Assembly (NCBI RefSeq): GCF_003334405.1
Contig: NZ_QOWM01000034.1
Direction: 5' to 3' (one strand)
From: Escherichia coli
GTDB lineage: Bacteria; Pseudomonadota; Gammaproteobacteria; Enterobacterales; Enterobacteriaceae
DNA length: 3,454 nucleotides
The notes beneath the pieces are model-generated. The model saw nothing but the letters and a program-made list of their open reading frames with translations, was not told the DNA's origin and did no database searches. This document shows, piece after piece, positions 291-632 of this stretch (position 1 is its first letter; the number at the start of each line of letters is the position of its first letter). Both the position numbers and the translations under genes were made by a program.

Positions 291-326
291 CACAAAAAAA
301 ACCCGACTGGTAATCGGGCTTTTTTG
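291..326. terminator. Bidirectional intrinsic terminator candidate
   Basis: Plus strand: A8 run, stem CCCGA (302-306), loop CTGGTAA, stem TCGGG (314-318), then T-run ending at 325. On the minus strand the same hairpin is followed by 8 U. The stem is only 5 bp. Confidence 0.45.
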
Positions 327-382
327 CGTTTTCCAGTCTTGAGTTGGTGGCTCTGACCGGAGGATGACTCTCAATATCCAAC
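295..382 (-). ncRNA. Candidate antisense small RNA (type I antitoxin-like), about 88 nt; ends are predicted, not mapped
   Basis: Minus-strand sigma70-like promoter just upstream (-35 TTGACA = plus 417..412, 17-nt spacer, -10 TACTAT = plus 394..389) predicts a start near 382. The minus-strand terminator at 326..291 is a CCCGA/UCGGG stem followed by 8 U. The predicted 5' end is the exact complement of the 17-nt repeat at 564-580 upstream of the small peptide ORF. Confidence 0.4.
366..382. repeat. Direct repeat copy A (GACTCTCAATATCCAAC)
   Basis: 17/17 identical to 564-580. Both copies are preceded by GGAG plus 3 nt and followed by CAGATACC-like sequence. Copy A has a 15-nt insertion (gtttatatagtaagt) before CAGATACC. 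Confidence 0.8.
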
Positions 383-388
383 GTTTAT

Positions 389-417
389 ATAGTAAGTCAG
401 ATACCCGGCTATGTCAA
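389..417 (-). promoter_or_regulatory. Candidate sigma70 promoter for the minus-strand small RNA
   Basis: Perfect -35 hexamer TTGACA (complement of plus 412-417 tgtcaa), 17-nt spacer, -10 TACTAT (complement of plus 389-394 atagta; 4/6 to TATAAT). Confidence 0.4.
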
Positions 418-563
418 AAGCCAGCTTATCTGGTTATACTTCAGATGCTTGTTGGGTGCTATTTGGGATTCCTGCTTCTGCTCCGCTGGCTGCGGCATGA
501 ATGAATCTAAAGTCCTGGCTGAATAAACAGGTGGTGCTGTATTCAGTGCTCTGGCAGGAGTGG

Positions 564-580
564 GACTCTCAATATCCAAC
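564..580. repeat. Direct repeat copy B (GACTCTCAATATCCAAC); candidate antisense-RNA target in the toxin 5' UTR
   Basis: 17/17 identical to 366-382. It lies 76 nt upstream of the ATG at 656 and is complementary to the predicted 5' end of the minus-strand RNA. Confidence 0.8.
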
Positions 581-632
581 AGATACCGGGAACCGTTGTG
601 ACAGGCAGTGTATGGGTAAGCAACGGTGTCTC

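Follow-up and report, generated by a model that had tools for sequence, protein, structure and literature searches.

A probable plasmid-borne type I toxin-antitoxin module of the DinQ-like family with a divergent AgrB-like small RNA gene in Escherichia coli

Analysis of a 3,454-nt stretch of Escherichia coli DNA (contig NZ_QOWM01000034.1 of assembly GCF_003334405.1; the whole stretch is here named the window) revealed a locus that is very probably a type I toxin-antitoxin module of the DinQ-like family, carried on a plasmid and acting by post-segregational killing. The locus consists of dqlB, encoding a small hydrophobic toxin, and a gene for an AgrB-like antitoxin small RNA (sRNA) that sits upstream of and divergent from the toxin gene and is provided with a separate sigma-70 promoter and an intrinsic terminator. 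This analysis established the homology and anatomy of the locus, together with its complementarity, covariation, and conserved structure. An earlier note on this DNA had proposed, in essence, that a divergent sRNA pairs with a repeat in the long 5' untranslated region (UTR) of a toxin mRNA, far from the ribosome-binding site (RBS), and this core reading is supported. The locus belongs to an already known system, and its toxin side is already annotated.

Results

The window was found to be 100% identical to plasmid NZ_CP122596.1 of E. coli ETEC6335, a 34-kb MOBP/MPF_T plasmid whose nearest relatives are typed IncX4. In this plasmid, dqlB is located in the plasmid maintenance region between topoisomerase-hha-hns genes and a parA-type partition locus, with the hns gene immediately upstream of the module. 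The 31-amino-acid open reading frame (ORF) matches the NCBIfam model NF041473.1 ("DinQ-like type I toxin DqlB") over residues 1 to 31 of 31 with 71.9 bits (cutoff, 35), and the identical ORF is annotated as dqlB (WP_032233319.1) in NZ_CP122596.1. Against the NCBIfam model for DinQ itself (NF041472), the peptide scores 23.5 bits, which is below the cutoff of 30. The cores of DqlB and DinQ are identical at 10 of 13 residues and have ALIA(V/L)LELIR in common. Coordinates of all features of the module are given in Table 1.

Table 1. Features of the dqlB locus in the window
Feature	Position	Strand	Basis
AgrB-like antitoxin sRNA gene, ~88 to 92 nt	291..382	-	Rfam match, fold, alignment with 12 homologous sRNA genes
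sRNA intrinsic terminator: GCCCGA...UCGGG stem plus U8	291..326	-	Terminator scan, repeat search, fold
Repeat copy A: sRNA nt 1 to 33, antisense region; exact 17-nt seed core at 366 to 382	350..382	-	Repeat search, pairing, cross-locus comparison
sRNA promoter: -35 TTGACA (417 to 412), 17-nt spacer, -10 TACTAT (394 to 389); start G382	389..417	-	Promoter scan (10/12) and conservation
Probable dqlB promoter: ATGTCA, 18-nt spacer, TATACT	411..440	+	Scan (9/12); -10 conserved
Predicted dqlB primary transcript, ~360 nt, with 209-nt 5' UTR	447..805	+	Conserved -10 and terminator
S1 5' arm ("lock"), pairing with 553 to 582	449..482	+	Minimum-free-energy folds; own-target preference
SL2 hairpin with invariant loop GGUGGUG	518..547	+	Compensatory changes; equals SL2 of dinQ (PMC5066626)
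Repeat copy B: sRNA target in dqlB 5' UTR; exact core at 564 to 580	548..580	+	Repeat, duplex, covariation
SL4 hairpin of the leader	588..632	+	12 pairs, 7 changed on both sides
Shine-Dalgarno (SD) hairpin: CUCCA/UGGAG core, SD GGAG at 644 to 647	633..650	+	All minimum-free-energy predictions
dqlB, 31-amino-acid hydrophobic type I toxin, MINLLIVVLRAVVAVANALIAVLELIRQFID	656..751	+	NCBIfam match, RefSeq annotation
dqlB terminator: 12-bp perfect stem followed by UUU	771..804	+	Scan, repeat search; 98 to 100% identical in related IncX plasmids

Sequence similar to the locus is widespread: it was detected in about 2,000 plasmids of PLSDB and in 3,028 of 5,426 complete E. coli genomes, and chromosomal dinQ aligns at 66 to 69% identity over window positions 509 to 776. 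According to one published report, dqlB is present on ~53% of IncX plasmids. For comparative analyses, 18 related loci were used, comprising chromosomal dinQ and loci from IncX4, IncX3, IncI1, IncI2, IncL (pOXA-48-like), and large avian pathogenic E. coli (APEC) plasmids.

The antitoxin side of the module becomes visible through a 17-nt sequence, GACTCTCAATATCCAAC, that occurs exactly twice in the window, at positions 366 to 382 and 564 to 580, both on the plus strand, as stated in the earlier note. For this sequence, ~0.01 matches would be expected by chance, and two or more copies were obtained in none of 200 dinucleotide-preserving shuffles. A repeat search revealed that the 17-mer is the core of a longer, 33-nt direct repeat (350 to 382 and 548 to 580; copies A and B) with 28 of 33 identical positions (85%). 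An Rfam scan of the window yielded a single significant match, AgrB (RF02891), on the minus strand from 381 to 294, with 62 bits compared to a gathering score of 40, an E value of 2.4e-9, and coverage of model positions 1 to 84 of 84. A second, agrA-like sRNA was not found in the window, with one AgrB match in the Rfam scan and no third copy of the repeat.

The sRNA is composed of a single-stranded, variable 5' seed, a conserved hairpin 1 with the loop GAGCCACCAACUC, and the intrinsic terminator. In the predicted fold of the 92-nt RNA (-31.2 kcal/mol, z = -4.08), the seed of ~21 nt is essentially unstructured, a weak 4-bp helix alone being predicted there. In an alignment of 13 homologous sRNA genes, both the -35 and the -10 hexamer are conserved, and the first transcribed bases, GU at 382/381, are invariant. 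The terminator stem (302 to 306 paired with 314 to 318) is lengthened by A/U pairs, and the A-run at 294 to 301 provides the eight U residues. The gene outlined in the earlier note, an RNA of about 88 nt with this minus-strand promoter, a start near 382, and a terminator with eight U at 326 to 291, is recovered element by element.

Among the first 11 loci compared, an AgrB-type gene upstream of and divergent from dqlB or dinQ was found by Rfam in nine, and in the remaining two, visual inspection of the repeat and the terminator led to it. None of the annotation tables examined lists the sRNA partner; the PLSDB gene table excludes RNA genes by design. As a side observation, the terminator at 291 to 326 is flanked by an A-run and, on the opposite side, by a T-run, and the terminator scan calls it on the plus strand as well. 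Because of this arrangement, it may work in both directions and also end the upstream plus-strand hns transcript.

The earlier note had further proposed that the 5' end of the sRNA is the perfect complement of copy B. This is correct for the 17-nt 5' seed, which pairs without interruption, but the complementarity extends to 33 nt rather than 17: the first 33 nt of the sRNA form 28 Watson-Crick pairs and 2 G-U pairs with positions 548 to 580, with 3 mismatches. Copy B also contains, at 557 to 564, GGAGUGGG, the analogue of "sequence 2" of dinQ. It ends 76 nt before the ATG at 656, the spacing that had been noted earlier, and this distance between target and start codon ranges from 71 to 79 nt in all compared loci, as in dinQ.

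Pairing was calculated for all loci in an all-against-all duplex matrix. Over 40 nt, the sRNA of the window pairs with its own target at -51.1 kcal/mol, compared to -42.9 kcal/mol or weaker on any non-cognate target. With the 20-nt seed alone, the respective values are -28.3 kcal/mol for the own target and -14.9 kcal/mol or weaker for the others. Preference for the own target was seen in most loci of the matrix. Exceptions in the 40-nt matrix are L005a and L007, which pair slightly better with the target of another locus, and in the seed matrix loci within one specificity class tie.

Whereas the ~20 5'-terminal nucleotides of the sRNA vary widely among loci, the mRNA target varies in step. In a concatenated sRNA/target alignment of 11 loci, intermolecular covariation was evident, with changes on both sides in 22 of 33 pairs. 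Standard pairs filled 93.7% of cells in this alignment, compared to 78.8% in shuffles (the observed value was reached in 0 of 500) and ~40% when the register was slid.

Outside the repeat, the hairpin-1 loop of the sRNA (GCCACCAAC, 341 to 349, minus strand) is complementary to the invariant SL2 loop GGUGGUG of the mRNA (531 to 537, plus strand). In the window, in K-12, and in L006, the predicted duplex adds 5 bp between these two loops across a bulge of 11 to 12 nt. The sRNAs of L010 and L011 are without the hairpin-1 loop, yet GGUGGUG is kept in their mRNAs. This loop complementarity could represent contact between the two loops, a remnant of the duplication from which the sRNA gene arose, or a role of SL2 as an SD-like standby site.

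On the toxin side, the only promoter element conserved across nine aligned leaders is the -10 (TAT..T invariant), which reads TATACT at 435 to 440 in the window. From this conserved -10 and the -35-like ATGTCA at 411 to 416, we infer a transcript start near 447. Since this position lies upstream of copy B, the repeat would be placed inside the 5' UTR, as the earlier note had reasoned for any mRNA starting upstream of 564. A hexamer search identified a single -10-like element at the equivalent position in 11 of 12 loci and two candidates in L008, and in the K-12-like dinQ locus the homologous -10 ends 7 nt before the published +1. The dqlB and sRNA promoters are arranged back to back, and their -35 hexamers overlap on opposite strands (411 to 417). 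Seven nucleotides past the -10, 11 of 12 leaders open with the first five bases of their cognate sRNA (GUUAG, GUUGG, GUCAG, etc.); in the leader of the window, GUUGG is displaced 4 nt inward, at 451. Leader lengths in homologous loci are 193 to 214 nt, with 194 nt for dinQ and a predicted 209 nt for the window.

All elements of the leader model of Kristiansen et al. (2016), namely, S1, SL2, SL4, and a closed SD hairpin, are present in the predicted primary transcript. By pairing with 553 to 582, the S1 arm would occlude the sRNA target in the full-length mRNA. The 5' end of the mRNA favors its own target in 10 of 12 loci, which matches the S1 "double lock" known from the dinQ model, and thermodynamic prediction gives a cost of 30.7 kcal/mol for opening the target in the full-length RNA versus 12.5 kcal/mol in the 5'-truncated RNA. 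The bulged hairpin that the earlier note had pointed out at 519 to 546 is real and corresponds to SL2 of the dinQ-type leader; it is conserved with compensatory changes, 7 of its 11 pairs being changed on both sides and 95.9% of cells paired. In the core of the SD hairpin, the five pairs are invariant in nine loci. In 5'-truncated leaders of the window, the SD hairpin is closed in the predicted folds and the 2:3 duplex (10 bp) amounts to -15.8 kcal/mol; the K-12 +44 control switches.

The leader also contains a 52-codon ORF (501 to 659, plus strand) that ends in ATGA, overlapping the dqlB start in a geometry similar to that of mok/hok, and has no obvious SD sequence. Because no equivalent ORF is present in 13 homologous leaders, it is probably fortuitous, and mok-like coupling through this ORF was rejected as a feature of the family.

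Comparison of the window with L013 (an mcr-1 IncX4 plasmid) and L014 (KV7), whose IncX4-type backbones are almost the same as that of the window, revealed a mosaic pattern. High identity was found for the sRNA scaffold (97 to 99%), SL2 (94 to 96%), the ORF (95 to 97%), and the terminator (98 to 100%). In contrast, identity is low in the seed (56 to 72%), the promoters (21 to 23%), the 5' arm of the mRNA (44 to 53%), the target (62 to 65%), SL4 (68 to 76%), and the SD hairpin (42 to 46%). The divergent stretches lie at 365 to 509 and 557 to 655 of the window, and despite this divergence each of the three loci is internally complementary. The pattern resembles a specificity cassette that has been exchanged or has diverged rapidly.

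The specificity class of the window is rare. With the 209-nt leader as the query, it was found in about 12 of 72,556 PLSDB plasmids, with backbones of the IncX4 and IncI2 types; counts are too low with a 53-nt megablast query, since an exact 28-mer is required by megablast. The sRNA-plus-promoter module of the same class is present in 73 PLSDB plasmids, compared to the ~12 with a cognate leader. Five of the 73 were inspected, of which two carry complete modules (L015 and L016) and three, all IncX4 (L017 to L019), are without dqlB. In these three orphans, the sRNA gene looks intact in its promoter, hairpin, and terminator; its seed differs from that of the window at 2 of 17 positions. The orphan of L017 is located at 427 to 585, homologous to 294 to 456 of the window. 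In all three plasmids, homology to the window stops at 456, ~10 nt into the dqlB transcript, and a hypothetical ORF of 141 amino acids (WP_001398192.1) follows.

Several plasmids harbor more than one element of this kind. L004 and L005 (IncI1/APEC plasmids) each contain two dqlB modules of different classes; in L005, both dqlB genes have AgrB partners with different seeds, and the second sRNA of L004 was not found. Upstream of its own module, L012 (IncI1) carries an extra AgrB-like gene at 390 to 477 with a sub-threshold score of 37.4 bits, the seed of which is identical to the target of another plasmid's module (L008 class). Together with the mosaic pattern, the rare class, and the orphan sRNA genes, this hints at specificity classes and possible anti-addiction orphans.

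Beyond the module, the window contains several further features. Directly after the dqlB terminator, a small hydrophobic ORF of 59 amino acids (821 to 1000, plus strand; WP_001694198.1) is preceded by a strong SD sequence, AAGGAGG, at 811 to 817, and a hypothetical ORF of 59 amino acids is found at the matching place after dqlB in L003 and L014. The ORFs at 821 to 1000, 2428 to 2643, and 2856 to 3209 gave no match to NCBIfam or PHROGs. A perfect 16-nt inverted repeat (1023 to 1038 and 1149 to 1164; TTTAGTTACAACATTC / GAATGTTGTAACTAAA) surrounds a GC-rich spacer of 110 nt and may be a recombination (res-like) site; TTAGTTACAACA also occurs after the dqlB terminator in L010, beside a recombinase gene. 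Arrays of the motifs GTGACATACA / GTACATCAT / GAAATACA, in direct and inverted orientation, are located at 1243 to 1415, upstream of a ParA-type ATPase gene (1412 to 2059), and recur at 2055 to 2136, between the ParA-type gene and a small ribbon-helix-helix/CopG-like gene (2134 to 2403). These arrays are probably partition centromere or operator sites, and weak Rfam matches to microRNAs in this region were discarded as artefacts of the palindromes.

Discussion

How the module is transcribed, processed, and translationally controlled, and how it would kill, we infer by analogy with dinQ/agrB and the plasmid homologs. The divergent, constitutive sRNA of ~90 nt (382 to 291) would serve as the antitoxin and the 31-amino-acid DqlB as a membrane toxin. 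The primary dqlB mRNA (from ~447) would be inert, its 5' end (449 to 482) being paired with the target region in stem S1, and the 5'-processed mRNA would be both the translatable species and the form open to the sRNA. Bound sRNA would hold the SD hairpin (633 to 650) shut and/or block ribosome loading, and an RNase III substrate would be formed. Upon plasmid loss, the short-lived sRNA would decay first, and toxin would be produced.

The individual steps have been described for related loci. For dinQ, the full-length mRNA is translationally inert and the +44 processed form is active, and agrB binds G88 to A119 of dinQ, re-closes the SD hairpin, and triggers cleavage by RNase III (PMC5066626; PMC3567139). 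DqlB of pOXA-48 is toxic and is neutralized by agrB in trans, and this rescue is abolished by a 4-nt seed mutation and restored by a compensatory mutation in the leader; agrB alone also rescues cells from killing upon plasmid curing (PMC12365149). The experiment with compensatory mutations that the earlier note had proposed has therefore been carried out on a homolog. The IncX3 locus of pOXA-484 is likewise toxic, is neutralized by agrB, and stabilizes a test plasmid (PMC12317039). Expression of the sRNA and neutralization of the toxin have also been demonstrated in K-12 (PMC3567139).

Three points weigh against this account. First, the covariation could partly stem from gene conversion between the direct repeats A and B instead of independent compensation; the complementarity is maintained whether by gene conversion or by compensatory mutation. 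Second, transcript ends, processing, and half-lives at the locus of this plasmid are all deduced from sequence. Third, the switch step in which the SD hairpin opens was not reproduced for the leader of the window in silico.

Because the SD hairpin stays closed in the truncated leaders of the window, repression of the standby type is considered a less probable but tenable alternative. In this case the module would be the same, but the sRNA would mainly block a ribosome standby or loading site near the target, as IstR-1 does on tisB. Closure of the SD hairpin in every predicted fold of truncated leaders and the position of the invariant, SD-like SL2 loop GGUGGUG directly 5' of the sRNA target are in line with such a mechanism; in addition, Kristiansen et al. 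state that a standby mechanism for dinQ cannot be excluded (PMC5066626), and a standby site as the possible target of AgrB has been suggested by Wen and Fozo. On the other hand, a 1:2 / 2:3 / 3:4 switch in dinQ is favored by structure probing (SHAPE), by mutational data, and by translation in vitro (PMC5066626), and the window, too, can form a 2:3 pairing of 10 bp, a matter on which thermodynamic prediction alone cannot decide.

The earlier note had suggested that the toxin leader could come from another plus-strand promoter candidate, ATGACT at 364 to 369 and TATAGT at 388 to 393, which would start transcription at ~400 and give a leader of ~256 nt. Such an origin appears improbable. The element exists and matches the consensus at 9 of 12 positions, but its -35 lies within the hypervariable seed and its -10 is unconserved in other specificity classes, and because of this missing conservation in homologs it is probably not the toxin promoter. 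Instead, TATACT at 435 to 440 is conserved in all loci examined and homologous to the mapped -10 of dinQ, and it is from -10 elements of this type that the first five sRNA bases are found at a distance of 7 nt in 11 of 12 leaders.

We consider it quite improbable that the locus is an SOS-inducible, LexA-controlled stress gene of the dinQ type rather than a constitutive plasmid addiction module. Chromosomal dinQ is under LexA regulation (PMC5066626; PMC3567139), CTGGCTGAATAAACAG at 515 to 530 (plus strand) matches CTG-N10-CAG, and the homologous site of pTF2 has been published as a weak LexA box with an HI of 11.64 (PMC12211044). However, the site at 515 to 530 belongs to the SL2 stem, ~70 nt downstream of the predicted transcript start, and true dinQ does not have it; RNA structure accounts for its conservation. 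A search for the LexA consensus that allowed up to 3 mismatches gave nothing at or near the promoter, the promoter containing CTG-N9-CAG, which is one base short. LexA was rejected as the main regulator on the basis of this empty consensus search, the sole nearby CTG-N10-CAG being the one inside the SL2 stem. The sub-cutoff score with the DinQ model and the action of plasmid homologs as addiction modules (PMC12365149; PMC12317039) also speak against this explanation.

It is highly improbable that the duplication is fortuitous or vestigial and plays no part in regulation, given the absence of the repeat from all 200 shuffles, the intact promoter, terminator, seed, and target, and a three-way covariation across loci. 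Membership in the ZorO/OrzO family, the comparison favored in the earlier note, has a negligible probability: the general architecture (divergent sRNA, RBS-distal pairing, long self-inhibitory leader) is common to both, but Rfam matches AgrB alone, the peptide matches only the DqlB and DinQ models, and the alignment of the leader with dinQ takes in SL2, SL4, and the SD hairpin. It is the AgrB/dinQ pair, which the earlier note had named as similarly arranged, that proved to be the relative by sequence. OrzO gave no match at E values up to 1 in the Rfam scan of the window, although the presence of an OrzO model in Rfam was not confirmed, and a ZorO sequence returned no NCBIfam family and is therefore uninformative on membership. 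This negative side of the comparison is weak, and the case against ZorO/OrzO is carried by the positive assignments to AgrB and DqlB.

As a probable addiction module of the DinQ-like family, the locus can be compared with several known systems. With DqlB-agrB of pOXA-48 (IncL) and pOXA-484 (IncX3) it has the toxin family (NF041473) in common, and the IncX3-type locus L007 also has an Rfam AgrB sRNA. These loci and the window have divergent back-to-back promoters, one sRNA gene, and no LexA box, are located on a plasmid backbone, and have ~33 to 35 nt of complementarity at the sRNA 5' end, 71 to 79 nt before the start codon. The window differs in its specificity sequence (…GACUCUCAAUAUCCAAC), which belongs to a rare class. 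Unlike the sRNA of the window, that of the pOXA-48 type (L011) is without the CCACC hairpin and scores too low to be detected by Rfam.

The chromosomal dinQ-agrAB locus of K-12, located between arsR and gor, has a homologous leader with S1, SL2, SL4, and SD hairpin. The sRNA 5' end of the window is 275 nt from the start codon, which is exactly the distance of the proximal sRNA gene in the dinQ locus, and the target is 75 to 76 nt from the start codon in both. However, dinQ has LexA operators over its promoter, which the window does not have, and two sRNA paralogs, with complementarity of 25/31 for agrA and 30/31 for agrB (PMC3567139), compared to one sRNA gene in the window. Furthermore, dinQ has a GUG start and a 27-amino-acid peptide, and dqlB has an AUG start and 31 amino acids. 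With a plasmid context in place of arsR-gor, no pair of agrA plus agrB, and a DinQ model score below the cutoff, the locus is not dinQ proper; by analogy with the plasmid homologs, its role is likely plasmid addiction, unlike the SOS physiology of dinQ.

More distant parallels are zorO-orzO (enterohemorrhagic E. coli), tisB-istR1, and shoB-ohsC, which have no sequence or family relationship to the window locus. They likewise have a divergent sRNA gene whose product pairs far from the RBS within a long 5' UTR, and their full-length mRNA is inert until activated by 5' processing, as proposed here for dqlB. In tisB, and as proposed in zorO, the sRNA competes at a ribosome standby site, whereas dinQ uses a switch of the SD hairpin (PMC5066626). 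Like hok/sok of plasmid R1, the module would kill on plasmid loss by means of a small membrane toxin whose full-length mRNA, until processed, is locked against translation as well as against binding of the antisense RNA (PMC5066626). In hok, however, the lock is a 5'-3' fold-back freed by 3' trimming, whereas the window lock would be formed by the 5' end on the target region. Sok overlaps in cis with the leader of mok, and translation of hok is coupled to mok, in contrast to the sRNA of the window, which is trans-encoded from a repeat, and to its leader ORF overlapping the dqlB ATG (501 to 659), which is not conserved.

The dql family was named by Kristiansen et al. in 2016 (PMC5066626). Since the family was defined at that time and the validation of DqlB-agrB from plasmids, with compensatory mutations among the experiments, followed in 2025, the system counts as already known, and with dqlB annotated in the identical RefSeq record and the addiction role described in 2025, the discovery value of the locus is small. 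The sRNA partner can nevertheless be placed precisely, and the comparative loci provide a clean natural covariation data set for AgrB/dqlB pairing. The maintenance modules of IncX4 plasmids bear on plasmid-curing strategies, since these plasmids are major vehicles of mcr-1.

The mosaic divergence, the rare class, the orphans, and the presence of multiple modules are the only aspects for which further study might be worthwhile. It is conceivable, though doubtful at present, that seed, target, and 5' lock, which pair with one another, constitute together with the promoters and the SD hairpin a specificity cassette that can be exchanged and diverges fast. If true, diversifying selection that keeps co-resident addiction modules orthogonal would be one fitting explanation, and an arms race with orphan antitoxins that act against addiction would be another, alone or in combination. 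Cross-protection between co-resident plasmids could be affected by such specificity classes and orphans.

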